Shown here piece after piece: positions 6,001-32,000 of a stretch of DNA of 32,000 nucleotides. Source of the stretch: Horticoccus luteus (GTDB lineage: Bacteria; Verrucomicrobiota; Verrucomicrobiia; Opitutales; Opitutaceae); contig NZ_CP080507.1 in the NCBI RefSeq assembly GCF_019464535.1, positions 3,360,001 to 3,392,000 of the forward strand, given 5' to 3'. The position numbers were made by a program, and so were the translations under genes. Numbering within the stretch: position 1 is the first letter of the stretch; each line of letters starts with the position of its first letter. The notes under the pieces are model-generated. The model did no database searches. It saw only the letters and a program-made list of their open reading frames with translations, and was not told the origin of the DNA.

Positions 6001-9000
6001 TGAGGTTCGTCGCGCCGAGGAGCGTGATGTCGCCGCTGCCGCTGAGGATATCGGCGTTCGCGGTGAGGTTCGCGGCGGAGAAGTAGATGTTGCCGCTGCC
6101 GTTCGCGCTGACGGCGGTGTTGTTCACGAAGCCGTCGTTCAGCGTCAGGTCGCCGGCGATGATCGTGAGGGCGATGGAGCCGTTCGCGGTCGTCGTGAGA
6201 TCAGAGAGGGTTTCAGCGGCGAGCGCGGTGGACGTGAAGTCGGCCGCGACGGCGCGCACCGTGACCGTTACGTTCGTAATCGTGAGGGCGTTGTCTTCGA
6301 CGAGGCTGATGCCGGCGGAACCGGCGCTGGCGGCCAGCGTGTCGAGGCCGACTTCGAGCGGGTTGGTCGCGGTGCCGATGCCCGTGCCGGCAACCAGGCG
6401 AGCGGCGCTGGCGCTGATGTCTTGATAGGTGTCCCCGCCGTCGAGGATCGAGCCGGCGGTGGCGGTCAACGTCACGGAGCCGGTGCCGGCTTGGATGCCG
6501 CCGAGCGTGATGTCGGTCGCGGCGAGCAGGCGGACGTTGCCGTTCGAGGTGGCGACTTGCGCGTTGTCGGCGAAGTGGATCGCACCCGCGGCGGCCACGA
6601 GGTTCACGTCGCCGCCGGTGGTTTTGACGTCGGCGGTCGTGGTGAACGTGAGGTTCGTGGCACCGAGGAGCGTGATGTCGCCGCTGCCAGAGAGGATGTC
6701 GGCGTTGGCGGTGAGGTTCGCGGCGGAGAAGTAGATGTTGCCGGTGCCGTTCGCGCTGACCGCGGTGTTGTTCACGAAGCCGTCGTTCAGCGTGAGGTCG
6801 CCCGCGATGATTGTCAGGGCGATGGAGCCGTTCGCGGTCGTCGTGAGGTCGGAGAGGGTTTCGGCGGCGAGCGCGGTGGACGTGAAGTCGGCGGCGACGG
6901 CGCGCACCGTGACCGACACGTTCGTGATCGTGAGCGCGTTGTCTTCGAGGAGGCTGATGCCCGCGCTGCCGGCGCTGGCGGCCAGGGTGTCGAGGCTGAC
7001 TTCGAGGGGGTTCGTGGACGTGCCGATGCCGGTGCCGGCAACCAGACGCGCGGCGGACGCGCTGATGTCTTGATACGTGTCGCCGCCGTCGAGGATCGAG
7101 CCTGCGGTGGCGGTCAGGGTGACGGAGCCGGTGCCGGCTTGGATGCCGCCGAGCGTGATGTCGGTCGCGGCGAGGAGGCGGACGTTGCCGCCCGAGGTCG
7201 CGATTTGCGCGTTGTCGGCGAAGTGGATGGCGCCGGCGGCCGCGACCAAGTTCACGTCGCCGCCGGTGGTCTTGACGTCGGCGGTCGTGGTGAAGGTGAG
7301 GTTCGTCGCGCCGAGCAGCGTGATGTCGCCGCTGCCAGAGAGGATGTCGGCGTTGGTGGTGAGGTTCGCGGCGGAGAAGTAGATGTTGCCGGTGCCGTTC
7401 GCGCTGACCGCGGTGTTATTCACGAAGCCGTCGTTCAGGGTGAGGTCGCCGGCGATGATCGTCAGGGCGATGGAGCCGTTCGCCGTCGTCGTGAGGTCGG
7501 AGAGGGTTTCGGCGGTGAGTGCGGTGGAGGTGAAGTCGGCCGCGACGGCGCGCACGGTGATGCTGACGTTGGTGATCGTGAGCGCGTTGTCTTCGACGAG
7601 GCTGATGCCGGCGCTGCCGGCGCTGGCGGCCAGGGTGTCGAGGCCGACTTCGAGGGGGTTCGTGGACGTGCCGATGCCGGTGCCAGCAACGAGGCGCGCG
7701 GCGCTGGCACTGATGTCTTGATACGTGTCCCCGCCGTCGAGGATCGAGCCGGCGGTGGCGGTCAACGTCACGGAGCCGGTGCCGGCTTGGATGCCGCCGA
7801 GCGTGATGTCGGTCGCGGCGAGGAGGCGGACGTTGCCGCCCGAGGTCGCGATTTGCGCGTTGTCGGCGAAGAGGATCGCGCCCGCGGTGGCCACGAGGTT
7901 CACGTCGCCGCCGGTGGTTTTGACGTCGGCGGTCGCGTTGAAGGTGAGGTTCGTCGCGCCGAGGAGTGTGATGTCGCCGCTGCCGCTGAGGATGTCGGCG
8001 TTCGCGGTGAGGTTCGCGGCGGAGAAGTAAACGTTGCCGCTGCCGTTCGCGTTGACCGCGGTGTTGTTGGCGAAGCCGTCGTTCAGGGTGAGGTCGCCGG
8101 CGATGATCGTCAGGGCGATGGAGCCGTTCGCGGTCGTCGTGAGGTCGGAGAGGGTTTCGGCGGTCAGAGCGGTGGAGGTGAAGTCGGCCGCGACGGCGCG
8201 CACGGTGATGCTGACGTTCGTGATCGTGAGGGCGTTGTCTTCGACGAGGCTGATGCCGGCGGAGCCGGCGCTGGCGGCCAGGGTGTCGAGGCCGACTTCG
8301 AGGGGGTTCGTGGACGTGCCGATACCCGTGCCGGCGACCAGGCGCGCGGCGCTGGCGCTGATGTCTTGATAGGTGTCGCCGCCGTCGAGGATCGAGCCGG
8401 CGGTCGCCGTGAGCGTGACCGAGCCGGTGCCGGCTTGGATGCCGCCGAGCGTGATGTCGGTCGCGGCAAGGAGGCGGACGTTGCCGTCCGACGTGGCGAT
8501 TTGCGCGTTGTCGGCGAAGAGGATGGCACCCGCGCTGGCCACGAGGTTCACGTCGCCGCCGGTCGTCTTGACGTCGGCGGTCGCGTTGAAGGTGAGGTTC
8601 GTGGCACCGAGGAGCGTGATGTCGCCGCTGCCGCTGAGGATGTCCGCGTTGGCGGTGACGTTCGCGGCGGAGAAGTAAACGTTACCGCTGCCGTTCGCGC
8701 TGACCGCGGTGTTGTTCACGAAGCCGTCGTTCAGCGTGAGGTCGCCCGCGATGATTGTCAGGGCGATGGAGCCGTTCGCGGTCGTCGTGAGGTCGGAGAG
8801 GGTTTCGGCGGCGAGCGCGGTGGACGTGAAGTCGGCGGCGACGGCGCGCACGGTGACCGATACGTTGGTGATCGTGAGGGCGTTGTCTTCGAGGAGGCTG
8901 ATGCCTGCGCTGCCGGCGCTGGCGGCCAGGGTGTCGAGGCCGACTTCGAGCGGGTTCGTCGCGGTGCCGATGCCGGTGCCGGCGACCAGGCGGGCGGCGC

Positions 9001-10770
9001 TGGCGCTGATGTCTTGATACGTGTCGCCGCCGTCGAGGATCGAGCCCGCGGTGGCGGTGAACGTGACTGAACCCGTGCCGGCTTGGATGCCGCCGAGCGT
9101 GATGTCGGTCGCGGCGAGGAGGCGGACGTTGCCGCCCGAGGTCGCGACTTGCGCGTTGTCGGCGAAGAGGATCGCCCCCACCCCGGCCACCAGGTTCACG
9201 TCGCCGCCGCTCGTCTTGATGTCGGCCGTCGGGTTGAAGGTGAGGTTCGTCGCGCCGAGGAGCGTGATGTCGCCGCTGCCGCTGAGGATGTCGGCGTTCG
9301 CGGTGAGGTTCGCGGCGGAGAAGTAGACGTTGCCGCTTCCGTTCGCACTGACGGCGGTGTTGTTGGCGGCGCCGTCGTTCAGCGTCAGGTCGCCGGCGAT
9401 GATCGTCAGGGCGATGGAGCCGTTCGCGGTCGTCGTGAGGTCGGAGAGGGTTTCGGCGGTCAGAGCGGTGGAGGTGAAGTCGGCCGCGACGGCGCGCACC
9501 GTGATGCTGACGTTGGTGATCGTGAGGGCGTTGTCTTCGACGAGGCTGATGCCTGCGCTGCCGGCGCTGGCGGCCAGCGTGTCGAGGCCGACTTCGAGCG
9601 GGTTCGTCGACGTGCCGATGCCGGTGCCGGCAACCAGGCGCGCGGCGCTGGCGCTGATGTCTTGATAGGTGTCGCCGCCGTCGAGGATCGAGCCGGCGGT
9701 CGCGGTCAGGGTGACGGAACCCGTGCCGGCTTGGATGCCGCCGAGCGTGATGTCGGTCGCGGCGAGGAGGCGGACGTTGCCGCCCGACGTGGCGATTTGC
9801 GCGTTGTCGGCGAAGAGGATCGCGCCCGCGGTGGCCACGAGGTTCACGTCGCCACCGGTCGTCTTGATGTCGGCGGTCGCGTTGAAGGTGAGGTTCGTCG
9901 CGCCCAGCAGCGTGATGTCGCCGCTGCCGCTGAGGATGTCCGCGTTGGCGGTGAGGTTCGCGGCGGAGAAGTAAACGTTGCCGCTGCCGTTCGCGCTGAC
10001 GGCGGTATTGTCCACGAAGCCGTCGTTCAGCGTGAGGTCGCCCGCGATGATCGTCAGGGCGATGGAGCCGTTCGCGGTCGTCGTGAGGTCGGAGAGGGTT
10101 TCGGCGGTCAGAGCGGTGGACGTGAAGTCGGCGGCGACGGCGCGCACCGTGACCGACACGTTGGTGATCGTGAGCGCGTTGTCTTCGACGAGGCTGATGC
10201 CGGCGCTGCCGGCGCTGGCGGCCAGGGTGTCGAGGCCGACTTCGAGCGGGTTCGTCGCGGTGCCGATGCCGGTGCCGGCGACCAGGCGCGCGGCGCTGGC
10301 ACTGATGTCTTGATAGGTGTCGCCGCCGTCGAGGATCGAACCGGCCGTCGCCGTGAGCGTGACTGAACCCGTGCCGGCTTGGATGCCGCCGAGCGTGATG
10401 TCGGTCGCGGCGAGGAGGCGGACGTTGCCGCCCGAGGTCGCGATTTGCGCGTTGTCGGCGAAGTGGATCGCACCCGCGGTGGCGACCAAGTTCACGTCGC
10501 CGCCGGTCGTCTTGATGTCGGCGGTCGCGTTGAAGGTGAGGTTCGTCGCGCCGAGGAGCGTGATGTCGCCGCTGCCGCTGAGGATGTCGGCGTTGGCGGT
10601 GACGTTCGCGGCGGAGAAGTAAACGTTGCCGCTGCCGTTCGCGCTGACGGCGGTGTTGTTGGCGAAGCCGTCGTTCAGCGTCAGGTCGCCCGCGATGATC
10701 GTGAGGGCGATGGAGCCGTTCGCGGTCGTCGTGAGGTCGGAGAGGGTTTCGGCGGCGAGTGCGGCGGAGG
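1..10770 (-). repeat. Head-to-tail tandem array of a 648-bp (216-codon) unit. About 16.6 near-identical in-frame copies, truncated by the left window edge.
   Basis: The same landmark recurs at 258, 906, 1554, 2202, 2850, 3498, 4146, 4794, 5442, 6090, 6738, 7386, 8034, 8682, 9330, 9978 and 10626, spaced exactly 648 bp. The unit translated from 300-1 and its neighbours reads ..LNDGFANNTAVSANGTGNVYFSAANLTANADILSGSGDITLLGATNLTFNATADVKTTGGDVNLVAGVGAIHFADNAQIATSGGNVRLLAATDITLGGIQAGTGSVTLTATAGSILDGGDTYQDISASAARLVAGTGIGTATNPLEVGLDTLAASAGSAGISLLEDNALTITNVSVTVRAVAADFTSTALTAETLSDLTTTANGSIALTIIAGDLT.. Identity to the consensus drops sharply at about 10768. Confidence 0.95.
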
Positions 10771-13700
10771 AGGCGTCGGTCGCGACGCTGCGAACGGTGA
10801 TTGAGACGTTTGTGACGGTGAGGGCGTTGTCTTCGACGAGGCTGATGCCCGCGCTGCCGGCGCTGGCGGCGAGCGTGTCGAGGCCGACTTCGAGAGGATT
10901 GGCGGAAGTGCCGATGCCGGTGCCGGCAACGAGGCGGGCGGCGCTGGAGCTGATGTCTTGATAGGTGTCGCCCGCGTCGAAGATCGACCCGGCGCTCGCG
11001 GTCAACGTGACGGAGCCGGTGCCGGCTTGCACGCCGCCGAGCGTGATGTTCGTTGCAGCCAACATCCGGACGTTGCCATTGGAGGTCGCGACTTGCGCAT
11101 TGTCCGCGAAGGTGATCGCGCCGGTGCCCGCCACGACGTTCGCGTCGCCGCCGCTCGTCTTGAGATCAGCGGTGGGGTTGAAGGTGACGTTGGCTGCGCC
11201 GAGCACGGTGACGTCACCGGTGCCGCTGAGGATGTCGGTGTTAGCGGTGATCGAAGTGCCCGCCCCACCCGCCTGCACGAGAATGTTGCCGGAGCCGTTC
11301 GCGCTCAGCGCGACGTTGGCGATGCCGCCCGTGCCATCGGAGAGCGTGATGTCGCCCGCGAGCGTGTGGAGGACGATGCTGCCATTGCCGGCGGTCACCA
11401 AGTCGGACAGCGTCGTGGTGGTGGTCAACGTGGTGGCGGTCGTGGCGTCAGCGGCCACGCGGTTGGTCGAGAACGTCGTGACGGTGTCGACGGTGATCGC
11501 GGTCGATTCGAGGAGATTGATGGCGGACCCGCTCCCACCCGTCGTCGTCTGGGCGGCGACGGTGACGAGTTCGGTCTCGATGGCGTTGTCCACGCCGGAG
11601 CCGACGAGGCCGATGGAGGTCTTCGCCTGGAGGCGCGCGGTGCGGCCGAAAATATTCACCTCGGTGGCGGCGCGCACTTTGTTGTCGGTGATGGAACCGG
11701 CGGTCGCGGTGACACCAACACTGCCCCAGGTGGCCTGGCTGATCAGAGTCGAGCCGGCGCGGTCGGTGTTGCGGCGTGCATCGAGGACGCCGAGGGTAAC
11801 GTCGACGGCCGCGGTGAAGGTGATGTTGGCGCCATCGGTCTGTGCGGTGAGCGTGGAGGCCTGGCTGATGCTGCGGGTAACGGCCTCGACGTCGATCGTG
11901 CCAGGCGTGGCAGCAACGATGACGTTGCCGGTGCCGGCGAACACGACATCGCGGCCACCGCGCACGGTGATATTGCCGTTGCCCGAGAGGACCTGCGCGT
12001 TGACGAGGACATCAGTCGAGGTGCTCTTCGCTTCGATGAGAATATTGCCGCTGCCGTTCGCGCTGATGGCGGCAGAGGCGAGGCCGCCCGAGCCTTCGTT
12101 CAACGTGATCGTGCCCGCGAGGGTTTGCAGAATGATGCTGCCATTACCGGCGGTGACCAGGTCGGAGAGCGTCGCGGTCGTGGTGGCGGCGGTCGAGACG
12201 GTGGCATCGGAGCCGACGCGATTCGTCGAGAAGGAAGCGACGGTGTCGACGGCGAGGGCGGTCGATTCGAGGAGGTTGATGGCGGACCCCACGCCACCGG
12301 TCGTCGTCTGCGCGGCGACGGTGGCGAGTTCGGTTTCGATGGCGTTATCAACGCCGGAGCCGACGAGGCCGATGCTGGTCTTCGCGGCGAGACGGGCGCC
12401 GGCCGCGTAAACGTTAACGGTCGAGGCGGCGCGGGCTTTGTTATCCGTGATCGAGCCGGCGGTGGCGGTGACGGCGACATTGCCCCAAGTGGCTTGATTC
12501 GTGAGGGTGGAGCCGGCGCGATCGGTGTTCTTCCGGGCGTCGACGACGCCGAGCTTTACGTCCACCGCCGCGGAGAGAGAGATGTTGGCGCCGTCGGTCT
12601 GCGCGGTGAGCGTCGAAGCTTGGTCGATCGTCCCGGTTTGCGCGGCGACATCGATGGTGCCGGGGGCGGCGAGGACGATGACGTTGCCGGTCGCAGCGAA
12701 GGTAACGTTGCGCTGGGCGAGGATCGAAATGTTACCGGAGGCGGACTTGATCGCGGCGTTGACCAACACGTCAGTCGCGGCCCCGAGCGCCTGCACGAGC
12801 ACGTTGCCGGATCCGGCGGCGGAGATCGCGGTGCCGGCGACGAGGGCGCCGTCGTTCAAAGTGATGGTGCCGGCCGTCGTGCGGATCACGATCGAACCGG
12901 TGCCGGTGCTGGTGACGTCGCTCTTGGTGACCGGCGATGTGTTCACCGAGCTACCGTCGGTTTGGACTTCGGCGATGGCGAAGACCACGGTGGAAACGGT
13001 GAGGGCATCATCTTCCAAGAGGTAAGCGCCACCCGCGCCGGTTTCGGCGGTGAAGGTGCCGATCGTGGTTTCGAACGCGTTGGCGGAAGTGCCGAAGCCG
13101 CCGTTGAGCGCGGAGACACGAAGCGAAGCGGCGACGACGTCTTTCGCGAGCTCACCTGCATCGAGGACCGAGGCCGAAGACGAGAAGAGCTCGACGAAGC
13201 CGCTGCCGGCGTTGAGGCCGGTGACGGTGACATTGCCGTTGGCGCGGTAGTCGATGTTGCCGCCGGCGGTGGTGGCGGTCGTGTCGGCCGCCATCGTGAT
13301 CGTGCCCGTGATGGCCTTGACGCTGATCGCACCGGTGCCGGAGCTGACCAGCAAGTCGCCGCCAGAATTTTGGGCAATGTTGCCGGCCGCGTAGAGGGAG
13401 ATGTTGCCGCTGCCGGAAACGACATCGGAACTGAAGACGACATCTGCGCCCGTCGATTGGAGCAGGACGTTGCCGGCGCCGTTGGCGCTGACGCCGAAGG
13501 TGTTCGTCGGCGTGCCGTCGGTGACGGTGATCGTGCCTGCCGCGACGAGAACGATGCTGCCGCCGGCGGAGGTGACGAGATCGCTCTGATCGGAAACGAC
13601 GAGGTCGCTGGTGAGCGCGGTGGCGGCGACGCGCTGGACGGTCACACCAACGGTGCCGACGGTAATCGCATCGGTCTCGGCAAGCCTGATGCCACCGGCG

Positions 13701-19700: not shown

Positions 19701-22700
19701 ACGCCCGTGCCGGAGCCGAGGACGGTGATGTTGCCGGCCTCGGTGGTGATCGAAATGTTGCCGCTGCCAGCGGCCGAAGTCTGGCTGACGCCCGTCACCT
19801 GGAGGTCGGCGCCGGCGGCGAGTTCGTTGATGATGAGGTTGCCGCTGCCGCGATTGACGGCGGTGACGGTCGTGACGGAGGTGAAGCCGAGGTTGATGCC
19901 GGTCTGCGCCGAGACGTTGAGGTCGGCCGCGTTGATGGGCTCGGACGAAACGCCGTCGGCCGCCGGGTCGTTGAGTTGCGAGATCTGGCCGTTGGCGGAG
20001 TAGAGAACGACGTTGTAGAGAGTCGAACCGGCGGTGCTCAGACGGGCGTTGAGCGTGTTGTTGACGGTGATATTGTTGACGGCATCGAGCGTGAGGTTGT
20101 TCGAGACTTGGAAGACATAGTTGGAATCCGTGAAATCGGACACCTCGATGCTGCCGCCGTAAACGTAGAGCGGATCCTTGAAGCTGACGGAGGATGGCCC
20201 GATGGCACCGATGCGGACGGCACCCGTGCCCGACGCGTGGCCGGAGGTGGCGCGGCCGATGTAGATGCCGGTAAAGCCACCCTTCAGGGCACGAACATCT
20301 GCGTTGGACAGCGTGAACCCGGAGCCGTCGGCGAAGGGCGGATCGGCGATATCCATGGCACGGTTGCTGGTGTAGGGCATCAACGTGATCGAACCGGTGC
20401 CCACGACGGAGTTGGTGGCGCCTTGGAAGTCGATCTCGTCAGACTCGATGGAAATATTGCCGCCGCCATTCACGGTGAGGCCCTTCTCAAAGACGACGTG
20501 GGCGGCGCCGGTGATGGTGAGTTTGCCGTTCGAAATCGTGACCGCTTTGCTAAAGGTAACGGTGCCGCTGGCGTTGATGATGACGTCGCCGTTCATCGTG
20601 AGCGTATCGTCGAAGGAGACGTCTTTGGCGTTGGTGACCTTGAGCCCTTCGAGCGGATCGGTGCCGCCGACGGGACCCTTGAACGTCACGTTGCCATTCG
20701 GAGCGCTGACGATGAGCGAGTCGTCGCCCGGCGAGCTGTCGCCGTCGAGGAAGATGCCGGTGTTGCCGCCGAACTGCACATCGCCGTTTTGCGAGGTGAC
20801 GGTGCGGTTTTGGCCGGAGATGATCACGGAGTCGTTGAACGTGTTGTTCCCCGGCATCGTGATGTCGGCGGAGATCGTCGTGGTGTGGCCGGAACCGTAA
20901 ATGTAGAGCGAGGCGTTGTCGGTGCCGACGAGGTTGTTATAGATGAACACTTCGCCGCCGGCCATCGGGTTGCGCACGATGAGCGGGTCGTCAAACGTGA
21001 TGACGCCCGTGGGATTCGCCTTGTCACCGAGGTAGACGACATGGGCGCCGTCGACGCTGCCGATTTCGATTTGCTGGAATCCGTTCTGCAGGAGCCCGAG
21101 CGCGGTGTTGTCGAGGTGGAACGCGGTGCCGATCGCGCTGAGGAAATCGCCGATGTAGATGGGCGCCGTGCTTTGACGCGGGTGCAAGGTAAGGACGCCG
21201 CCGGGGCTGCTCACCGTGCTGGTGATGTTAACGTTGTCCGCGATGAGGCTGACGTTGTCGCCACCTGCATCGATTGGCGACGCGATGGTCTGGGTGCCGG
21301 TCAGGGAAACGACGCCGGTCGTGCCGCCCTTCGAGCCGCTGCCGCCGGAATCGTTTTGCACGATGATGCCGGCGAGGGCGAAGACGTAGACGGGGAGGCG
21401 GTTCGAGCTGGAGGTCGTGACCTTCGCGGCGTTGATGACGAGAGCGAGCGGGCTGTAGGTAAAGCCGGCGACGGAATCGCCGATCTTGTCGCGGGCGCGC
21501 AAGGTGATGGTGCCGAGCGTGGTGTTGAGATACGGCCCATCGGCGGAGCGGACGGCGGTGCCGTTGGCAAATCCGTGAACGAGGATTTCGCTCAGCGTCA
21601 TGTTGGCGGTGAGGATTTCACCGGTATTGAGATCGACCGTCGCCACGCCTTGGCGGAGAACCCAATCGGTCTCCGGATTGAAGCTGCCGCCGGGCAACCG
21701 CAGCCAGCCCACGACGCTGGCGTTGTTGATGATCGATCCTTGCGAAGCGACGAGCGTGATGTCGCCCGCACCGGCGACCGCGATGCCGTCGGAGAGCGTG
21801 ATGTCGCCGTTGTCGGTCGTGAGGCTGACGCCGCCGCCAGTCGTGACGATCGCGTAGTTGAGGGCGATGAAGGAGTCGGCGCCGCCGGCGTAGAGGGAAA
21901 TGTTGCCGGTCTTCGCGTGGATGCCGGTGCCGCCGATGGTGATCGCGCCATTGGCCGTCTCGATCGAGGTGGTGCCGGAACCGTCCTGAATGATTTGTGC
22001 GAGGATGAGTGCGTCAGCCTCGCGCAGCGCGATGGCGCCATGATGATTATAGAGCGAGAGCGAAGCGACGTTGGTCTTGATCGCGCCGGCGGTGCCGGAA
22101 CCGATGCCGTTATCCGCGCTGAGCACAAGCTTCGCCCCGGTCGCGGTGATCTCGGTGCCGCTATCGCTCGCAGCCAGAATCGCGCCGCCGGTGCTGGTGA
22201 TGACGAAGTCCGCAGGGTTGGTGGTGGTGAGCTTGCCGAGCGTGATGTCGCCTGCGGCGCTGAGAGAGATGAGGCCGCTGCCCGCTTTGACGTTGGTGCC
22301 GGCGGCCATCGTGAGGGCGCCGGTGCCGCCGTTGAACGTCACATCGCCGGCGGTCGTGGTGATCGCGGCCGCGGCGGAGAGATTGAGACCGGCGGCGCCG
22401 AGGAGGCTGATGTCACCGCTCGCGCTGGTCAGAGGCTGCGTCAGTGAGAGTGCGCCCGCGGTCGTCTGGAGATAAATGGCGGCGCTGCCCGTGGTGGTGA
22501 CGGCACCGCTGACGGTCATCGCTCCGCCGGACGTGACGTGGACCGCGGCGTTGCTGGAACTGACGAGGCCGGTGACGGCAACGCCATCGGCTTCGGCGAT
22601 CGTGATCGCGCCACCGGCGGTGACGTTGAGCGTATCGGCTTCGAGGGTGGCGTTGACGGTCGTATGCGCGTTGAGCGTCACGCCGGCGGCGCTGTCGAGA

Positions 22701-25700
22701 TGGTTGATGGAGACGAGGCCGTTGGTGGAGGTGATCGAAACGTCGCCCGTCGTGCCGGCGATATGATCGATGTTGATATTGCCGTCGGCGAGAATGGTGA
22801 GGTTGCCGCCCGCCATCGTGATGGTGCCGATGGAGATGTTGCCGGTTTGGATGATGGTGAGGTTGCCCGTCGAGGTCATCGTGACGGAGAGCGAGCCGAC
22901 GGCGGTCTTGACGGTGAGATCCTGGCCGGCCTGCAAGGTCAACGTGCCGGCGGTGATCGTGCTGCCGAGGGTGATGCCACCGGTCGTGCCGGCGGTGAGG
23001 CTGACCGAGCCGCTGCTGCCGACATTGAGGGTCGAGACGACAATGAGGTCCGTGCCAGCCGTGAGGCTGATGTTCTCGCCACCGTTGGTCGGGAGATTAA
23101 CGACCGAGAGGCTGCCGGCCACGCTCATCGTGAAGTCGCCCGGGGTGCGGGTCGGGAGCACGAGGACGTAATCGCCGGGGAGCGCGAGCGCGCTGCCGCC
23201 GGAGCTTTCGTCGGTGCGCGCGAGGACGGTGAACGGGGTGTTGTCGGCCTCGGACTCGAGGACAAGGCGGCGATTAGCGGAGTCGACGGTGACGGTGATC
23301 GCCTCGCCGGCTTCGATGGACGTTTTGAGCGAAGCGAGAATGCTCGCCCAATTCGCACCGGCCGCGGCGGTGGCCGTGTAGGTGTGGGAGCCGTTGATGA
23401 CGACGTAGAACTCGTAGCCAGTGCCGAACTTGTTGGCGAAATCGATCTGAGTCTTCTGCTTCGCAACCTGGCCTGCGGCTTGAGTCGGCGTGGACCCGTT
23501 GGCGGTCACGCCGTTCTCGACCGGCGTGGTGGAAATCTGGGAGGCGGTGCCGAGGCTGGTGAACGTGGTGTTGTTCACCTTGGCGGTGAGCGTGAGCTTG
23601 CGGTTGGACGCGTCGACCGTCGCGGTGACGACATTACCGGCGTCGATCTTGGTCTTGAGTGCGCCGAGGACCGAAGCCCAGTCTGCCGTGACCCCGCCGG
23701 AACCAATGCTGACTTGGTAAGTGGTGCTGTTGACTTGAACGGTGTAGGTGTAGCCGGCGGCGAGTTGGGACGCGTCGTATTGAATCACGTTCACCTCGGC
23801 GCGACTGAAGCCTGCGAGTTGCGTCGGCGCGGTCGGAAGTCCGGTGATCGCGCCGGCCAGGGTCGCGGCGACGGCGTTGACGACGAACGCGGTGTTCACC
23901 GCGCCTTGGAGCGTGAGCTTCTTATTGGCCGCATCGACGGTCACGGTGATCGTCGGATTGAGGGTGTGGATGAACGTGTTGAGGCCGCCCAGGACATCGG
24001 CCCAGGCCGCAGTCGCGACGGAAACGGCACGGGCGGTGGCGGTGTAGCGATGTTGCGGGTCGGTGTTGATGGAGGCACCGAGGCCGGTCGCGGCAGTGGC
24101 GAGAGAATCACCCGAAGCCGGAGTCCATGAGTATTTGTCGCCGTCGATCGAGATGGAATACTTGTTGGCGGAGCTGATGGTGAGCCCCGTGAGGCTGATG
24201 ATGCGCACGGCGCCGGGCTCGGGTGCGCTGATGGCCACGCCAGACAAACCGGCGAGGTTGGTCACGGCGGTGCCGGTGGTGGTGTCGGTGACCGAGAAGC
24301 GTATGTCGGACAAACTCGCGCCGGTAATGGTGATGTATTCGTTGTCGCCGACGCTGACGGTGTAAGGAGTGCCGTTGACGAAGACGGTGTAGGCCGTGGT
24401 CGAACCGACGGTGCCGCCGAACACAACATCGTTCTTCTGCGGCAATGTCGCGGTCGCGACCTGACTCGGATTGGTGCCATCCTGACTGACGGAGGCGAGC
24501 GCCGTGACGAAGGCGCCGTCCACGCCAAAGGCGGTGTTAATGGCGGTGGCCTCGAGCAGCATTGAGTGCGTCGTAGAGTCCGGCGTGACGGTCACAGCTT
24601 CGCCAGCTTCGATAAGGGTCTTCAGACCCGCGAGGACTGAACTCCAAGCGGCCGTCACCGTCGCCGAACGCGTGGTGGCGTCGTAGGTGGCGCTGGCGTT
24701 GACCTTGCTCGCCAGGTCCGAGGCGAGCTGGGCGATCGTTTCGCCGGACGTGGCCGTGTGCGTGAAGGCGCTGCTGCCGACGGTGAGCGTGTAGGTGGCG
24801 CCGTTGGTGACGGTGAGGCCGCTGAGGTTCACGAGGCGGTAGCCGTGACCGTCCGTGGTGACGCTGAGGGAGGCTTGACCGGCGTCGTAGTTTTGCGCGG
24901 CGGTGGCCGTCGCCGTGATGGCGGCGGTGCCCGCGCCGGCGCTGATGGTGATCTTGTTGGTGGCGGCGGTGGCCGTGTAGGTGGCGTTGGCGTCGATCAG
25001 ACCGGCGAGGGACGTGGCGATATCGGCGAGGGTTTTTCCGGCTGCCGCCACGTAGTCGAAGTCGGTGCCAGCCACCGTCACGCGGTAAGTGCCGCCGGTG
25101 ATGACCGTGACGCCGGTAAGATCGATGGTGCGGGCATCCCCCGCCGTGGTGCCGGCGGCGTTGATGGCAATTCCGGAGCTACCGGCGATGGCCTGGATGG
25201 TGGTGACGCCGAGCCCGATGGCCGCGGTCGATGCGCCGGCGGTGATCGCAATGAGTTGGTTACTGCCGATGCGCACGGAGTAAGCGTGGCCATTGATCAG
25301 CACGGAGTAGAGGCCGTTGGAATCCGGCGTCGAGCTGCTGAACGTGACCGTGCTCTGCTGGTTGGCGTCGTGGCCGGCTTCGATCGTGGGGTAGCTGCCG
25401 TCGAGGGTGGGCGCGGAGACTGGAGCCAGAGTGACGAGATTCACGCTCACGGTGCCGACCGTGAACGGCGTGTTGGCGGCCCGCGCGGTGAGCGTGAGAG
25501 TGCGGCTGACGTTGAGTGAAACGTCGATCGATTCGCCTGCTTCGATCTTCGTTTTCAGGCCGCCCAGCACGGACGAGATTGTGGTATCGATGCCGTCGGA
25601 TCCCGCGGTAACGGCATAGGGGTTGCCGTTGAGGGTGACGGTGTAGGTGTAGCCGGTTTGGACGAGGCTGGAGAAACTGATGGTGCTCGACTGCGGCACA

Positions 25701-28700
25701 GAGGTGCCCGCGGCCGTGATCGGCGTGATCGTCGCTTGGGTGACGGTGCCGGCGGCGGCGAAGATGCCGGCCTGCGTGACGGTGCTGTTGGGATCGAGCG
25801 TGATGCCGCCGCTGGTCGCGGTGTATTTGAGTTCGAGCTCGTTGCCAGTGCCGACGATGGTGGGGTTCAGGATGATCTTTGGCGTGCTCGCGAGCGTGCC
25901 GCGGAGGGTGATGGTGTAGCCAAACACGTCGACGACGTCGTTGTCGTAAGCGCCCGAAGTGTCGTTGTCGTGGCCATTGCTGTCGGCGACGCGGCGTTCA
26001 TAGATCGTCCCGGAGGCGTCGATGATCACATTGCCGTGGAGTTTCTGGGCGCCGGCGATCGCGCCAGCCTCGACGTGGTCGAGGTAGAGATCGCCCGCCG
26101 CCTTGATCGTGATGTCGTCCCCGGCGCGGTCGGCGACGTTGTGCACTTCGCGCACATATTGCGTGCCACCGGAGGTAATCTGAATGCTGCCATCCTGCGC
26201 GATGACCGAATCCACGTAGAGGCCCGTGGCTTCGTTGATCTCGATGTTGCCGGTGGAGGTCGTGAGGGCGTTGAGGCGGTCGATCAGGGTGTTGAGCTGG
26301 ATGCCGTGCGCCGCGTTGACGTTCAGGATGTAGGCGATGAAGACGGACGCGCCATCGGAGACGATCGAGTCGGCGGTGATCGAGAGAACGCCGGACTGGG
26401 CCGCGTCGGCGGCGATGATGCCGCCGAGGACGGTGAGCGTCCCGGCGACGTTGAGCGTGACGTTGCGCGCCGGATCGTAAGCCGAGAGACCGCCGATGAA
26501 GCCCGAGAGCGTCTGGCTGCCGGTCAGCGTGACCGCGATATCAAGTTTCGCGCGCAGTTCAAAGTGACTGGCGGGAATCGTCGCGAGCTGGAGGTTGATG
26601 TAGCCGGAGGGCGCGGTGACGGTGGTGACGTTGCCTTGGCCGGCATTGTTGACGTCGACGGCGGTGGTGACCGGGTTGATGCCCTTCGCGGTAATCTTGA
26701 CGTTATTGATGGTGCTGCCGCTCGCCAGGATGCTGCCCTTGACGATGACGTCGGCACCGGAGGTGAGCTGGACGAGCGTGCTAGCGGTGATCGTGCCGTC
26801 GATGGAGATGGTCGAACCGGTATCGATGATCACGGTGCTCGACGAGATGTTGCCGGGGAGAAGCTGAGTCGCGGCGCCGTTCGGACGGAAGACGAGGTAG
26901 TTGCCGGCGTGGTATTCGGTGAGGTCCGGCCCGGTGAAGAACTTGTAGAGATCGACCACCGTCGCGGCCGAGAAGGCGACGCCGCGCGTGAAGGTGAGCG
27001 AGTCCGTGGAAACCTGCGTCTGGCCCACGATGGCTGCATTGCCAGCGCCGGCGGAAATCGTGACCGTCGCGCCGCTGCCCGTCGCCGTGTAGGTCGCGTC
27101 GGCGTCGATCAAGCTGGCGAGACCGGACACAATCTGCGGCAGCGTGTTGCCGGCGGCTGCGACGTAGTTGAACGCGGTGTTCCCAATGACCACGCGGTAG
27201 GTGGCACCGGTGACGACCGCGACGTCCGTGAAATTGACGGTGCGGGCATCGTTTGCGGTCGCACCGGTGGCGTTGACGAGGATGCCGCTGGAGCCGGCAA
27301 CCGATGGGGCGACGACGGTCACGCTGCCGGCCGCACTGGTGAGGCGAATGGTGTTGGCGCGCACCACGCCGTCTCCGGCAACGGTGAGATTGTTTTGGGC
27401 TTGGACGGCGACGGTGGTTGATCCGCCTGCGGCCGCAGACGAGACCGCTTTGGTGATCCGCAAGCCGACGTTGCTCTCCAGCGCGCCATCGGTCTCCGTC
27501 AGGTTGACGTCTCCGGCCGTCGTTGTGGCGGCCAGGCTGTTAGCGGCGATTTCCAGGTTCGTGATGCCTGTGCTGGCATTAAGCGTGATCACGTTGCCGA
27601 TCACATCGACCGCGGCGTCGTCGGCGGATTCGGTGATCTTTCCACCGGACGAGGTCAGGGTGACATTGCCGGCCGAAGTAAAGCTGGTGACGGCGTTACC
27701 GTTGAGGTCGGTGAGGACGGGCTTGTCGGCAGGAGTGGCCAAGTAGATGCCGGCATTGACGCGGCGCACCAGGATATCGCCGGCCGCGGTGATCGTGATG
27801 TTGTTGCCGGTCTGATTCGAATCGCTGTGCACGTCCACCAGTTCAACCGAGCCCGCCGCGGTGAGGTTCAAACTGCCATTCGCGATCGCAACGGAAGTCA
27901 AGACGAGCGGCAGAGACGTTTGCGTGAGAGTCACGTCGCCCGCTTTCGTGGTGGCGAGCGTAAGCGTGTTGGCCGCGAGCGCGAGGTTGACCGGACCGAA
28001 CGCTGCCACCGCGACGTCGTCGGCGGTGATCGTGCCGGTATGAGTGAGGGCGCCTTGCGCCGAGAGCACCACGTCGCCGCGACCACCGGCGGAAATTGTG
28101 CCGACGGCGATGTTGGCGGAGGCGGGATTCGGATTAGCGGTCGTCGGCACCACCATGTTGGCGGTGAGGCTGATGTCGTTGCTGTCGCTCGTGCCGAGTG
28201 TCTTGACCGAGGTCGCGGTGATGCTGCCAACGGTCGTCACAGCGATCGCCCCGTCGGCGGCGGTGATATTATCGAGCGCGATGTCGCCTTGATTGGTCAG
28301 GCTGATGTTGCCCGGAGCGGAGAGCGTGAGGTTTGCGTGAGCGACGCTGGTGTTGAACTCCAAGGAGCCTTCGGCGGATGCGGTCAGGAGGTTGCCGGTG
28401 ATGTAGCCCACAGTCTGCGTGATCGTGCCGGCGGCGGCGCCCAGGGTGACGTTGCCCGCATCGAGCGTGGAGCCGGTGAGCGTGATGTTGCCGCCCGCGA
28501 GGCCCGCCCGCAGCGTGAGGTTGCCGGCGGAGTTGGCGACGTTGGCGTCGAGAACGGCCAGAATGTTGCCGATGATGCTGCCGGACTTGCTGCTGCTTTC
28601 GCCCGCCAGGAGGCTGATCGAATGCGGCGCGGTGACGGAGCCGGTGAGCGTGACATTGCGGGCGGCGGTGGCACTGATCGTGCCATTGGTTCCGGCGGCG

Positions 28701-31700
28701 GTGACCTGACCGCCGAGCGAAAGATCGGTCCCGGCGGTGAGCGCGATGGTTCCGGCGACGGCGCTGGTTGTCAGATTGGCCGAACTGCCGATCGTGAGCG
28801 CACCACCGGCGGTGAGGGTAATGGCATTGGCGGCTTTCAGCTGCGAAATTGATTCGATTTCAGCGCCGGGAGCGATGGTGCCCTGCACTTGGAGCGAAGA
28901 ACCGGAGGTGATTGCGAGGGTGTCCGTGCCTGTCACCCAACCGCTGAGTTGGACGGCGCCGCCTGCGTTGATGGCGACGGACTTGCCAGCGATGGACTCA
29001 CCCGCGAAGGAACCCGAGAGGAAGGTGGCCGTGGTGTAGGTGACTGCGGTGACCGAAGTCGTCTCCGTGGTCGTGGTCGGAACATCCTGCCACAACGTGA
29101 TGTGGTCGGGCGGATCGTTGACCACGACTTGCTGCTGCGAGGTTTTGTAAACCGGACGGGATTGGTAGATATCCTGGGCCTGGGTCGTGAGAGTGTAGCT
29201 CAACTTGATCCGCTGATCGTAGATCTTATTGGCGTTCGACGTCATCTGGTAGCTGTAGTCGTGCTGCGTCTCAAAGACGTTACCGTAAACGATCAGGCTC
29301 GAGATTTCGTCGTTCCAGTGGTCGCCGATCCACGGATTCGTGGAGTAATCGGTGCGGCTCTCACCGCCGTAGTTGATGTCCCAGTAAAGCACCACTTTCC
29401 GCGTGGTGTCGCCGTTGAAGCTGAGGGAGCTATACTCGTCGTTATGTGAACTCCCGACCCATGACGTGCCGCCGTTGGTGAAGCGGTCGCCGTAACCGCC
29501 AAAATTGATGTGTTGATACATCGTTACGTCCCCGCCGCCTTGACGATAGCCGACGAGAACGTGCGAGCGCGAAGAATCGGTCAACTGGGACAAGGACGCC
29601 GTATGAAGCGTGAGTTCGTCGTAATAGGTCGGAGACGAATAGATGAAATTCTGCCCCAGTCCGTTGTTGATCGAATTTTGCGCCGGGGTCGGGGTCTTCC
29701 ACGTCCACTGGGGATCATAGGTCCGCGTCGGCGTAATCGTGTTTGCACTGGTGCTGCCCGGGGCGACGCCCGTGATCGCGTAGTGCCGTACACCGGTGCC
29801 ATCGAGATAGGAAACCGACCAGCGGGCGGCGCTGTTGTCGTCGTCCCAACCTGTTTGAATGTTAATGCCGAGTACATTCACATACGCGTTCTGATAGGTC
29901 GACTTGTCCTGCCGATAGTACACGTTGCCGACATCGGTGTAGGTGCCGACCACTCCCCCGCTCGGAGTCGTGGGGTTGTTGGCGTCGATGGTAACCCAAG
30001 TCCCGTCGTTGCGGCCATCGGCAGTGGTGTCGCCCGTCAGGTATTGCGCTGGCGCCGAAGTGACCACGTTGGCGATGTCTTTCTGGGCACCGGACGGCAT
30101 GAGGATGTATTTGTCCTTCAGCCCCTTGAGCGGCAGATAATAAACGACGAGCGAGTTACTCGCCCAACTCGGCGTGTACGGTGCTGTCGAGGCAACGCCG
30201 CTGAGGGTTTTATGGTTAACCGGATTGCTGTAGCTGAAGCTGTACAGCCGCATGTAACCAGTGGAGTTGAGCACGGCCTGGCGCTGCGCGTCGTTAAGAC
30301 CGGTGAAATCGAGGTAGCTGTCGGACTTGTAGTCGGAGGTGACCGACGTGGCGGTGCGGCCGAGGTGATCCTCATCGCCGGCATTGGACCAATTGATCTG
30401 ACTATTGAAGTAGTCGACGCCTTCGATGAGGATCGCTTTGTATTTCGAGCCATCCGGCGCGTTCGGGTTATAGTAACCGATCTGCTCCAGACTGATGTCC
30501 ATCGTCTGATACTCCGAGCCCACCTTGACTTGGGTGGTGCCGATTTCCTCGGTGATCGTGGTGTATTCCAAGTGTGACTTGGGCACGACAATTTCACCGA
30601 TGGCTACCTTGGTTGAACCGGTGACTTTGGTGACGGACTGCGTGGTCGTATCGTAAACTGGCACCAACACGGTGCGCTCGCCCGTGACGCTGGCGTCGGC
30701 GGTCAGGATGACATCCCCACCCGCCCGCATCTTGAGTGCGCCGCCGGCCGTCACCGTGCCTTGCCCATTCACTTGAATGGTGCCGCCATGCAAATCGCTG
30801 GTCGCAATCGTGCCTTCAAGCTGGGCGCGCGTCTGCAGCGTGTTGACGCCCGCGTTCATATCCAAGGTGCCGGCGGAATTCACCAACCCGTCGACGTAGA
30901 GAAGGGAGTTCGCATTGATCAACATCCGCCCGGTCGTCGCCGTGACCTTTACGATGCCTTTGACGTAGATGACGTCGGCCGCAAGGTGCACCAGCGTATC
31001 GCCGATAATGATCGACTCGGGATGCGTGAGATCGACCTTGCCGTTGAGGAGGATGCTTTGCCGACCGTGGAAATAGTTGTCGGCCCCGCTGGCGGTTGCG
31101 TAAACGTGGCTGCCGGCGACGAGATTGATGCTGCCACCTTCGATCGCCACGTGGTCGCGGATATCGATCGTGCTGGTGATAATGACGTCGCCGCCGGTCG
31201 AATTGATCGTCAGCGAGGAAACCTTCGCGGCGGACGCAGGATTGCTCGGGTCGACCAACTGGCCGAGTACACCTTTAACCAGAATCGTATCGACGCCCGT
31301 GAGCGTGATGCTGCCCCCCGCCGCCGTGTCGACCGTGCCGCCGGTCAGTCGGTCGCCGTTGGCATCGAAGGTGAACTCATTAATATAGATCGAGAGGTGG
31401 GTGCCGTCAGTGCCCCCGGTGATGGAAACTTGATCGTAGGCGGAAACGAGATTGTCGATCAGGACGAGAGAATTGGAGAAGAGCGTTAGATCCGAACCGA
31501 TGTTCGCGGCCTGCACGACGCCTGAGATCTGAATATCGCCCGTGGTGCGGACATCGATCGACCCACCGGTGATAGTGTTGGCATCGGTCCATTGGCCCTG
31601 ACCTGACCGATCAAGCAGAATTGAGCTCAGATCCAGCACCGCGAAGCCGATCCCGTTCGCATCCATGCCGGATTGAATCTGGATGGCCCCTGAGGCCGCG

Positions 31701-32000
31701 AGGTAGCCGCCGGCAGGCACAACAGCGAAATTGGCGTCCAAGCCGTTGCCGCCAAGAATCACGGATTGTGTGCTGGTGATATAGAGATTCGAACCGGCAC
31801 CGGTCCACGAAACATCGGTGGTGTCGCTGTCAAAATCCGAGCCCGCGATCACGCGCCCAACGATGACAATACTCTGGGCTTCAAGGCGGATCTGGCTGGC
31901 GGCCCCCGAGGAGAGGATGGAGGCGTCCGCGCCGATTTGCAGCGCGCCGGCGGCGGTGATCGCGACCGCGGAATTGCCCTCCAACGTCGCGCCCATTGGA
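1..32000 (-). CDS. Internal fragment (10,666 complete codons, open at both window edges) of one giant beta-helical repeat protein. Probably a secreted fibre or adhesin of the beta-strand-repeat / filamentous-haemagglutinin-like class.
   Basis: I hand-translated more than 60 sixty-nt rows spread across the window: 31999-31740, 31500-31380, 30720-28920, 27300-27000, 26940-26880, 25980-25920, 25680-24480, 24180-24060, 22500-22440, 21720-21060, 20400-20220, many rows between 17100 and 11460, and 300-1. All read in the same phase and give coherent beta-strand repeat sequence, for example PMGATLEGNSAVAITAAGALQIG and GNVRLLAATDITLGGIQAGTGSVTLTATAGSILDGG. Third codon positions are mostly C or G. An ATG lies at 31996-31994 in this phase, yet the track lists no minus ORF in this phase. 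That is only possible if no stop follows it inside the window. The long + ORFs start at 11, 5195, 5909, 9083, 10379, 10958, 17585, 18689, 22538, 24758, 25658, 27827, 28889, 29510 and 30761. All are 2 mod 3, which is the in-phase antisense of this frame. Confidence 0.92.
10771..11283 (-). repeat. Degenerate proximal copy of the 648-bp unit, marking the transition from the diverged modules to the homogenised array.
   Basis: It stays in register with the array but has many substitutions. Its protein reads ..TADLKTSGGDANVVAGTGAITFADNAQVATSNGNVRMLAATNITLGGVQAGTGSVTLTASAGSIFDAGDTYQDISSSAARLVAGTGIGTSANPLEVGLDTLAASAGSAGISLVEDNALTVTNVSITVRSVATD. Confidence 0.7.
11284..12802 (-). repeat. Two tandem copies of a 759-bp (253-codon) variant of the super-module.
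   Basis: Matching anchors lie at 11284, 12043 and 12802 (..gttgccgg[ac][gt]cc..), and the hallmark segments at 11511 and 12270 are both 759 bp apart. The two proteins align along their whole length. An example pair is TLTAQTDGANITFTAAVDVTLGVLDARRNTDRAGSTLISQATWGSVGVTATAGSITDNKVRAA against TLTAQTDGANISLSAAVDVKLGVVDARKNTDRAGSTLTNQATWGNVAVTATAGSITDNKARAA. Confidence 0.85.
14600..17290 (-). repeat. Two copies of a 1,344-bp (448-codon) di-module. Type A and type B super-modules alternate.
   Basis: The anchor gtgccgccggtgcc sits at 15723 and at 17067, and the anchor aggaa[cg]aggcc sits at 15057 and at 16401. Both pairs are exactly 1,344 bp apart. The proteins align, for example GGAANTKGDLVTTGGTIDVQAGTTITMFDGNSATTTNANIRYFSG against GGAANTAGDISTTGGTIDVSAGGNIAMFDGNSATAANANIRYLAT. 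A partial third copy continues towards about 14300. Confidence 0.8.
20190..21200 (-). other. Two related units of the form short beta-helix block followed by LTL.P....I.IG ... L..L..GF..I.IG. They resemble modules I recall from filamentous-haemagglutinin-family giant proteins.
   Basis: Direct translation of 21195-21020 gives LTLHPRQSTAPIYIGDFLSAIGTAFHLDNTALGLLQNGFQQIEIGSVDGAHVVYLGD. Direct translation of 20400-20200 gives GSITLMPYTSNRAMDIADPPFADGSGFTLSNADVRALKGGFTGIYIGRATSGHASGTG. The family assignment is from memory only and has not been searched. Confidence 0.5.
21750..23150 (-). other. Regular beta-helix segment with short coils of about 18-22 aa.
   Basis: Translation gives repeats such as NISLTAGTDLIVVSTLNVGSSGSVSLTAGTTGGITLGSTITAGTLTLQAGQDLTV. 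Row 22441-22500 was read directly as VTTTGSAAIYLQTTAGALSL. Confidence 0.7.
23200..25700 (-). other. Array of about 8 small (60-115 aa) strand-strand-helix-strand modules of at least two subtypes. Family not recognised.
   Basis: Rows 25680-24480 were translated directly, plus spot rows at 24000-23941, 23700-23641 and 23400-23341. The helix-type motif [WI]..[VI]L..L[KN]T.I recurs five times: ISSVLGGLKTKIEAG near 25585, AAWSSVLAGLKTLIEAG near 24640, AAWADVLGGLNTFIHT near 24000, ADWASVLGALKTKIDAG near 23680, and ANWASILASLKTSIEAG near 23350. Each is preceded by Y.Y.V.[VL]NG..Y.V and followed by [IV]TVTVD..N..L.L.....NT.F.V. The second subtype is exemplified by GDARTIDLTGVTVITGGTYRVTVAGTDFDYVAAAGKTLADIATSLAGLIDANATYTATAATNKITISAGAGTAAI at 25150-24880. 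Confidence 0.75.
27010..27290 (-). other. Isolated copy of the second alpha/beta module subtype, embedded between beta-helix segments.
   Basis: Direct translation gives GILVNATGATANDARTVNFTDVAVVTGATYRVVIGNTAFNYVAAAGNTLPQIVSGLASLIDADATYTATGSGATVTISAGAGNAAIVGQT. By eye it shares roughly 60 percent identity with the module at 25150-24880. The DNA is also visibly homologous. Confidence 0.8.
27330..28985 (-). other. Beta-helix segment between the globular insertion and the first alpha/beta module.
   Basis: Translation gives coils such as NAITLTAGGALTIGSSANLTTSAVAGTIALTAGTDLSLGGQVTAAGTNGTISATAARNVTLTGS. The hallmark IGNVITLNASTGITNLEIAAN was read directly at 27600-27541. Confidence 0.7.
28990..30670 (-). 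other. Non-repetitive globular insertion of about 560 aa that interrupts the beta-helix. It is lower in GC and rich in Tyr, Trp, Asn, Gln and Lys.
   Basis: The region was translated row by row with no stop or frame change. It begins ..TGERTVLVPVYDTTTQSVTKVTGSTKVAIGEIVVPKSHLEYTTITEEIGTTQVKVGSEYQTMDISLEQIGYYNPNAPDGSKYKAILIEGVDYFNSQINWSNAGDEDHLG.. It continues ..YYRQDKSTYQNAYVNVLGINIQTGWDDDNSAARWSVSYLDGTGVRHYAITG.. and ends ..YKTSQQQVVVNDPPDHITLWQDVPTTTTETTSVTAVTYTTATFLSGSFAGESIAGK. Spot GC counts are 31/60 in row 29581 and 33/60 in row 29641, against 43/60 in row 1-60 of the array. Confidence 0.85.
29285..29530 (-). other. Beta-gamma-crystallin domain with two Greek-key motifs and both Ca-binding-type N-D-x-x-S-S motifs.
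   Basis: Codon-by-codon translation gives VTMYQHINFGGYGDRFTNGGTSWVGSSHNDEYSSLSFNGDTTRKVVLYWDINYGGESRTDYSTNPWIGDHWNDEISSLIVYG. The signature Y-x4-[FY]-x-G occurs twice, as YQHINFGG and YWDINYGG. Each is followed at the expected distance by N-D-E-[YI]-S-S-L-x-[FV]. Confidence 0.85.
30680..32000 (-). other. Irregular beta-helix at the N-terminal side. The frame continues past the right window edge.
   Basis: Direct translation of the following rows gives these sequences. 31999-31900: PMGATLEGNSAVAITAAGALQIGADASILSSGAASQIRLEA. 31800-31741: GAGSNLYITSTQSVILGGNG. 31500-31381: IGSDLTLFSNSLVLIDNLVSAYDQVSITGGTDGTHLSIYI. 30720-30661: GGDVILTADASVTGERTVLV. Confidence 0.7.

Follow-up and report, generated by a model that had tools for sequence, protein, structure and literature searches.

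Among the closest described systems are the RTX adhesins, where the budding of ligand-binding domains from split ones is an established rule and gives a topology by which they can be recognized (PMC12077191). Adhesins such as AhLap of Aeromonas hydrophila and MpIBP of Marinomonas primoryensis consist of a long repetitive extender broken by non-repetitive domains (PMC12077191, PMC6650083). These domains bud from a host domain and return beside the exit point, their cargo includes calcium-dependent sugar-binding domains, calcium is central to them, and the budding can nest, as when a vWFA domain emerges from an RTX roll. A second group of relevant proteins is known from Chlorobium chlorochromatii, whose Cag_663 and Cag_665 start with LEPRxLL, contain a C-terminal beta-helix of 12,000-14,000 amino acids (aa) and lie next to a TolC-like gene (10.64898/2026.03.19.712371). 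The same preprint notes a central beta-gamma-crystallin motif in Cag_665, as an InterPro match only, and reports the transfer of the giant proteins of Chlorochromatium aggregatum to the partner cell; it does not describe a conserved module or a variable slot around that motif. Here, we analyzed a stretch of 32,000 nucleotides from Horticoccus luteus (hereafter, the window), which lies within the gene of a giant repetitive protein, and we describe a module that interrupts the shaft of this protein at window positions 29006-30694.

The CdiA proteins provide a third point of comparison. Their receptor-binding domain is a variable recognition region placed between the FHA-1 and FHA-2 parts of a beta-helical filament, and swapping its class changes the target. 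Our module resembles this arrangement in being an embedded variable region with conserved flanks. It differs from CdiA in its cargo domains, and no toxin tip is in view. A Pfam scan that covered ~5,000 of the 10,666 aa gave no match to families of filamentous-haemagglutinin repeats or of two-partner secretion (TPS); any TPS domain would fall outside the window.

We propose, with moderate confidence, that the stretch is a conserved display module in a giant, probably exported, beta-helical LEPR-XLL fiber, where it would serve the calcium-dependent recognition of a ligand with a specificity that is swapped by means of a variable slot. The evidence comes from the anatomy of the module, from the content of the slot in relatives, and from the architecture of the proteins that carry it.

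A module outside the shaft

The minus strand of the window has no stop codon in frame offset 1 across its 32,000 bases. The resulting open reading frame (ORF) fragment encodes 10,666 aa and is open at both ends, so that the window is an internal piece of a much larger gene. We number its residues such that residue i corresponds to window positions 32000-3i to 32002-3i on the minus strand. Most of the translated protein is rich in Ala, Thr, Gly, Leu, Ser, and Val. The first-pass annotation of this DNA had proposed that a non-fiber insertion of about 560 aa interrupts the fiber at 28990-30670, and the two ways we have of delimiting it agree with this proposal. The family alignment places the entry at aa ~436-443 and the exit at aa 998-1003, and the amino acid composition switches within these limits. 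Residues 445-1000 (window ~29000-30667) are richer than the rest of the ORF in Tyr (7.7% versus 1.2%), Trp (2.2% versus 0.1%), Gln (5.0% versus 2.1%), and Lys (3.2% versus 1.0%), and poorer in Ala (5.2% versus 15.6%). The enrichment in Asn that had been listed with these residues is not there (6.3% versus 6.8%), which removes the argument that an aromatic- and Asn-rich composition indicates a carbohydrate-binding module. The drop in GC content had also been overestimated at about 15 points: we measured 0.57 in the module, against 0.65-0.69 downstream (8-11 points) and 0.61 upstream (4 points). At third codon positions the GC content (GC3) is 0.766 for the module, against 0.77 for the flank upstream of it. 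The drop stems from codon positions 1 and 2, and reflects amino acid usage rather than foreign DNA. The peptides quoted in the annotation were all found in their places in the translation.

The module has the following parts, in the order of the protein, all on the minus strand:

30470-30694 (aa 436-510), entry strands, Thr/Val-rich and alternating, from TVLVPVYDTTTQ to QIGYY, delimited by family alignments

30224-30484 (aa 506-592), core sub-domain 1, with the motifs QIGYYNPNAP, EGVDYFNSQINW, and LNDAQRQAVLNSTGY, predicted local distance difference test (pLDDT) 95-98

29699-30223 (aa 593-767), core sub-domain 2, beta-rich, pLDDT 79-97

29531-29698 (aa 768-823), start of the variable slot, comprising a linker modeled with low confidence, a short helix at aa 790-799, and a long ascending strand at aa 800-820

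29276-29530 (aa 824-908), beta-gamma-crystallin domain, with two Greek-key motifs and two calcium-site motifs

29006-29275 (aa 909-998; aa 913-998 in the alignments), exit strands, with the motifs Y.Y.W.S, IYDQRIKLSY, RPVY, and TLW

The structure of aa 400-1060 was modeled with AlphaFold from an alignment of 58 family proteins (59 rows), giving a mean pLDDT of 77, a predicted template modeling score (pTM) of 0.59, and pLDDT values of 82-98 in the core. An earlier model made from a 3-row alignment had a pLDDT of 32 and was discarded. The flanks of the retained model consist of short strands, as expected of beta-helix rungs, and such strands are seen at aa 400-435 of the upstream shaft. In the module itself, the strands are long, there are two helices, and the core is modeled with confidence. 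This supports the view that the stretch is a real module outside the shaft that does not continue the beta-helix; such a continuation had been named in advance as fatal to the idea of an inserted head. Both borders had been described as runs of alternating polar and hydrophobic residues that could pair as a stalk, and both are indeed modeled as long beta strands, with sequences that are conserved across the family. The entry, which starts with TVLVPVY in the alignments, is modeled as two strands of ~36 residues (E37-73 and E76-111), with a pLDDT of 44-60 in the half close to the shaft and above 82 near the core. The exit contains the elements E500-522, E543-562, and E566-599, the last two being strands of 20 and 34 residues; its pLDDT is 74-96 at model residues 501-560 and below 50 at 570-589. 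The shaft resumes at SFAGESIAGKSVAINAGG.

A conserved core without known relatives

The ~280-residue core between the entry and the slot is a previously undescribed domain family with a confident model and without known relatives. We found nothing significant in Pfam or NCBIfam for the module and its flanks, and a sequence profile of the core had no match in the PDB. A Foldseek search of the PDB with the whole model gave no match at an E value of 1e-3 or better, the only high-probability matches being beta-gamma-crystallins, and a search of BFVD gave nothing meaningful. The earlier statement that some 330 aa of the stretch belong to no recognized family therefore stands after searches of Pfam, NCBIfam, PDB profiles, and Foldseek.

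Core sub-domain 2 carries the motifs W..DKYILMP.GAQ, YLTGD, G..VG.Y.D...V.Y.Q..S, RW.V.Y, and DP.W.W, whose columns are invariant or nearly so. Most of the invariant residues of the core are hydrophobic or are Trp, Tyr, Gly, or Pro, which fits a scaffold better than an active site. Core sub-domain 1 is one copy of a repeat of 65-80 aa that is tandemly arrayed ~1,400-1,800 aa upstream of the module in relatives, and hidden Markov model (HMM) matches to profile positions 20-100 recur upstream in L003, L005, L007, L008, and L009. The consensus of this repeat is YYN...GKK.L.TF.EG.DY.N..I.W....P....F..L..AQ..AV...LGY. Tandem arrays of it were seen in L003:4679-6181, L005 aa 1480-1990, and L009:4619-5971, and extra copies lie inside the module of L002, L003, L004, L011, and L018. 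The upstream arrays were scanned against Pfam and the repeat had no meaningful match.

The slot carries different domains in different relatives

The slot as a whole spans aa 768-912 in the family alignments. It begins with the linker at aa 769-788, which has low model confidence (pLDDT below 50 at model residues 370-389), followed by the elements H391-400 and E401-421. From each of 67 complete modules, we took the sequence that lies between DP.W.W and the exit motif. Nine of the slots, including that of the window, are crystallin-like, and at least 12 are C-type-lectin-like. The others comprise a large Trp-rich group (FKYW..W, SYSYSSWGW), one cluster of 7, and several singletons, and in 3 of the 67 modules the slot is nearly empty (49-82 residues).

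The lectin-like slots are the most informative. A profile of five of them (A9) matched mannose-binding protein C with an E value of 2e-7, and it matched the macrophage mannose receptor and selectins as well. They contain GEPN or GQPD and WND motifs, which form the sugar and calcium sites and which align with those of mannose-binding protein C. P0133 is an example of the EPN type and P0113 of the QPD type. One of the slots (P0075) passes the Pfam Lectin_C threshold (23.5 bits for a cut-off of 22.6). The intact lectin domains in the same slot of relatives are the strongest argument for considering the slot as a recognition site. The first-pass annotation had suggested a displayed ligand-binding head, and the suggestion gains from finding C-type lectins in the position of the crystallin domain in at least 12 relatives. 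It has to be amended in one respect: the unrecognized 330 aa are the conserved scaffold and not the variable, presumably ligand-specific, part.

The window's own slot is not C-type-lectin-like. It holds a domain that, by its motifs and sequence matches, is a canonical putative calcium-binding beta-gamma-crystallin, as the annotation had recognized. Two Greek-key signatures of the form Y/F/W-x4-Y/F-x-G are present (YQHINFGG at aa 828-835 and YWDINYGG at aa 872-879), each key having a calcium-ligand motif N/D-N/D-x-x-S/T-S (NDEYSS at aa 853-858 and NDEISS at aa 896-901). A phmmer search of the PDB with the single sequence matched only microbial beta-gamma-crystallins, at aa 825-908 (3hzb, E value 9e-5). 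A profile of four crystallin-like slots matched clostrillin with an E value of 9.4e-11 and 3i9h, 3iaj, 2k1w, 3hz2, and 3hzb with values of 1e-7 to 1e-9. In Pfam the window slot is below threshold (Inhibitor_I36, of the same clan, E value 0.33), and the slot of the relative P0015 passes the same test (24.3 bits for a cut-off of 21.1). Foldseek matched the crystallin part of the model, where the pLDDT is just 44-62, to 5z6e (probability 0.99, TM(target) 0.55, 30% identity) and to 1ag4 (probability 0.80). A strand of 21 residues (aa 800-820) flanks the domain on one side and one of 23 residues (aa 899-921) on the other. The domain shares Greek keys and calcium motifs with the microbial calcium-binding beta-gamma-crystallins (clostrillin 3so1, flavollin 3hzb, spherulin 3a, and Protein S), and it differs from them in being a single domain set between two long strands within a protein of 10,000 aa, with a calcium binding that is predicted from motifs. 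A calcium-dependent interaction of this cargo is plausible.

A rare family in giant proteins of several lineages

The module family is real, widespread across phyla, and rare. Pattern scans located the module in the genomes of Oceanospirillum sanctuarii, Polaromonas, Rhodoferax, and Halarcobacter, and in 17 metagenome contigs. Nearly all of these loci sit in ORFs that are open for more than 3,300 aa on either side, as far as the fetched DNA extends. In 18 loci (4 from genomes and at least 14 from metagenomes) the entry motif and the exit motif occur together, with an anchor-to-exit distance of 424-749 residues, compared with 462 in the window. A profile search of 1.84 billion cluster representatives gave 186 matches, 92 of them below 1e-30, and most of the matching proteins are giant or truncated. 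A word-indexed protein search returned only short fragments (2, 1, and 4 matches), low-complexity candidates dominating the output, and tblastn against plasmids found no match. Across relatives from at least six lineages of bacteria, the module keeps one and the same position.

Two complete relatives are available at NCBI: a "calcium-binding protein" of 7,259 aa from Maridesulfovibrio frigidus and a "LEPR-XLL domain-containing protein" of 7,008 aa from a Methylocystaceae genome. Both are colinear with aa 2-1500 of the window at 27% identity, and both have the module at aa ~4,600-5,400 of 7,000-7,260. Residues 4307-5733 of the relative P0054 align with aa 2-1391 of the window (27% identity, E value 3e-85), and the Methylocystaceae protein (NVK17780.1, P0056) aligns with it in two colinear blocks. 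The latter matches the NCBIfam LEPR-XLL family NF012209 ("LEPR-8K") at aa 14-32, with 22.1 bits for a cut-off of 17, and the N terminus of P0054 reads ...RLEQRILLSG... The gene in the window is, judging from this colinearity, probably a member of the LEPR-XLL family.

In both complete relatives (L023:7638-37822 and L024:7537-38695), which come from unrelated phyla, the giant gene has neighbors that encode a TolC-like protein, HlyD-like adaptors, and a SecA-like protein. By the predicted products, this shared gene set looks like a dedicated export apparatus in which a SecA-like motor replaces the usual ABC transporter, and we found no published account of it. Together, the TolC-like, HlyD-like, and SecA-like neighbors, the LEPR-XLL motif, and the RTX repeats point to export. 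The RTX repeats of P0056 are internal (aa ~2,446-2,606), and its C-terminal half has none according to Pfam or NCBIfam; their position argues against the protein being a classical RTX adhesin of type 1 secretion.

A further relative, on a 175-kb metagenome-assembled contig (L022:1-20459, GCA_037975565.1), has its giant gene split into more than 12 short called genes. The breaks are probably frameshift errors of long reads, and we set this frame-shifted copy aside as uninformative. It shows a route by which such giant genes drop out of protein databases.

The shaft and its other segments

Outside the module, the ORF consists of the following parts, also on the minus strand:

30695-31999 (aa 1-435), upstream shaft, Gly/Ala/Thr/Ile-rich and beta-helix-like, with homology to what precedes the module in relatives

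1-29005 (aa 999-10666), rest of the ORF, an Ala/Thr/Gly-rich shaft with a 216-aa tandem array at its end

1-11000 (aa ~7000-10666), tandem array with a period of 216 aa (648 nucleotides)

P0054 and P0056 align colinearly with the upstream shaft at 27% identity, and the shaft continues for more than 9,600 aa downstream of the module within the window. The array at aa 7000-10666, with a self-identity of 95% at lags of 216, 432, and 648, is the sole true tandem array of the ORF; Tandem Repeats Finder missed it because its period of 648 nucleotides exceeds the limit of 500 nucleotides of that program. GC3 climbs along the gene from 0.77 to 0.93 in the array, which suggests a recent amplification or homogenization.

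The module had been described as the only sizeable non-repetitive stretch of the window, which does not hold: aa 1000-3500 show no periodicity, and a second unique segment lies at aa 3560-4000 (window 20000-21322). The latter has a GC content of 0.61, occurs with 42% identity in L005, L008, and L009, and had no match in a Pfam scan. In L019 and L020 it is found near the C terminus, which ends ...YYDKA.NDIFYFWTENVRL, and the window protein runs for 6,600 residues beyond it. A mini-domain of ~75 aa (..ATYRVVIGNTAFNYVAAAGNTLPQIVSGLASLIDADATYTATGSGATVTISAG..) is dotted along the shaft, at aa 1575-1650, 2279-2353, and 2388-2449 (window 27050-27277, 24941-25165, and 24653-24838). It occurs many times in relatives, including inside the head module, with two copies in L017 and one in P0018.

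Budding, junction, pore, or enzyme?

How could such a module work? We propose that the chain would exit the shaft through the long Thr/Val-rich beta strands and fold into the conserved ~280-residue core, which would act as a platform. A second excursion would then lead into the variable slot, from which the chain would go back to the shaft through the conserved exit strands. The budding would thus be nested, from shaft to platform and from platform to slot. The slot would carry the functional cargo: a crystallin domain in the window and, in relatives, a C-type lectin, a domain rich in Trp, or some other unrelated domain, the slot of a few being almost empty. The most likely role of the module would be to recognize, in a calcium-dependent way, a ligand on the surface of a partner cell or a substrate, with a specificity altered by the exchange of the slot domain. 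We infer that the module would be extracellular, that the head would project away from the shaft, and, from the motifs of the slot domain, that the latter may bind a ligand. A more ambitious version of this proposal would make the module the partner-recognition head of an uncharacterized class of giant beta-helical LEPR-XLL filaments, exported by a dedicated set of TolC-like, adaptor, and SecA-like proteins, in which the core is a universal socket of new fold and cell contacts are re-targeted by swapping cassettes, as in phototrophic consortia. We regard it as possible and somewhat doubtful.

Compared with the RTX adhesins, the likeness lies in the interrupted extender, in the budding and return of the chain, and in the calcium-dependent cargo. 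There are also clear differences. The extender is here beta-helix-like and not a string of Ig-like domains, and BIg or cadherin-like families were absent from every segment of the window scanned with Pfam. The host of the cargo is a dedicated and conserved platform of ~400 aa, belonging to a new family, instead of a split Ig domain. Thousands of residues separate the module from either end, and it is not near a C-terminal RTX secretion signal; the complete relatives lack a C-terminal RTX block and have a SecA-like neighbor in the place of the usual ABC transporter. As far as the description in the preprint allows a comparison, the features that it gives of the proteins Cag_663 and Cag_665 match both the window, where the shaft runs on for more than 9,600 aa after a crystallin domain, and the complete relatives.

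Several observations weigh against a display module. Microbial beta-gamma-crystallins are often mere calcium-dependent stability modules, and the cargo of the window may accordingly be purely stabilizing and bind no ligand. The Trp-rich slots, which are the largest class, have no meaningful Pfam match. The model has low confidence in the crystallin part and in the halves of the entry and exit strands that are close to the shaft, part of each being below a pLDDT of 50. Finally, the LEPR-XLL membership of the window is drawn from a colinear identity of 27%, the ends of the gene lying outside the window.

In a structural explanation, the module would mark the border where the N-terminal part gives way to the long C-terminal beta-helix, as a junction or as a nucleus (a cap, stopper, or ratchet) that folds when it meets extracellular calcium, and it would bind no external ligand. 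The architectural position is fixed and would suit this role: in the window, more than 9,600 aa of shaft come after the module, and the complete relatives have the module at aa ~4,600-5,400. The strong conservation of the core, as expected of a structural element, would suit it too. The two intact calcium-site motifs of the crystallin domain and the RTX repeats of relatives are in line with it, and a calcium-driven extracellular folding of such proteins has been argued in the Chlorochromatium preprint (10.64898/2026.03.19.712371). However, a junction leaves unexplained why the slot swaps unrelated domains, among them lectins with intact sugar-site motifs, or is nearly empty, and the shaft sequence is homologous on either side of the module. 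We consider it unlikely, if the foremost of the alternatives. The long amphipathic hairpins bring to mind a membrane-active or translocation element that inserts into a target or outer membrane, alone or oligomerized, like the stems of beta-pore-forming toxins, the head being the trigger. There are four strands of 20-37 residues with alternating polar and hydrophobic residues, and related giant proteins were proposed to be injected into a partner cell (10.64898/2026.03.19.712371). Yet these strands are rich in Thr, Val, Gln, and Lys and not in the Gly, Ser, and hydrophobic residues of stems, they are much longer than a bilayer needs, and no pore-forming family was matched in Pfam, the PDB, or Foldseek, which makes such an element highly improbable.

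The core could instead be an unrecognized enzyme, for example, one modifying glycans or peptidoglycan, that the slot domain targets to its substrate. It is highly conserved and has no assigned family, lectins and carbohydrate-binding modules are common partners of carbohydrate-active enzymes, and a few polar residues are invariant (the D of LSDAQ, the DK of DKYI, and the R of G.R). Yet no catalytic family was found by sequence or fold, there is no invariant constellation of His, Cys, Ser, or Glu, and one copy of a structural repeat, arrayed elsewhere in the protein, makes up the first third of the core. An enzyme seems to us slightly less probable still than a membrane-active element. As for a recent foreign insertion or an assembly artefact, the GC content of 0.57 in a shaft of 0.65-0.69 would be its only trace; it is effectively refuted by a GC3 that matches that of the upstream flank, the fall being at the first two codon positions, by the unbroken frame, and by the occurrence of the module at the same place in relatives of at least six lineages.

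Significance

Hardly any annotation exists for giant bacterial proteins, whose lengths range from 7,000 to more than 30,000 residues. The module that we propose to be a display platform is the one place in these fibers where recognizable binding domains are found, in a swappable slot on a conserved platform. The nature of the slot domain would then predict the target of the fiber: lectins with an EPN motif would indicate mannose, N-acetylglucosamine (GlcNAc), or fucose, those with a QPD motif galactose, and a crystallin slot, as in the window, would point to a calcium-dependent interaction. The module is small enough to be expressed, and two of its carriers, Oceanospirillum sanctuarii AK56 and Maridesulfovibrio frigidus, are cultured. 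The finding also links the window to the proteins of the Chlorochromatium aggregatum symbiosis, whose central crystallin motif had been noted without its context.

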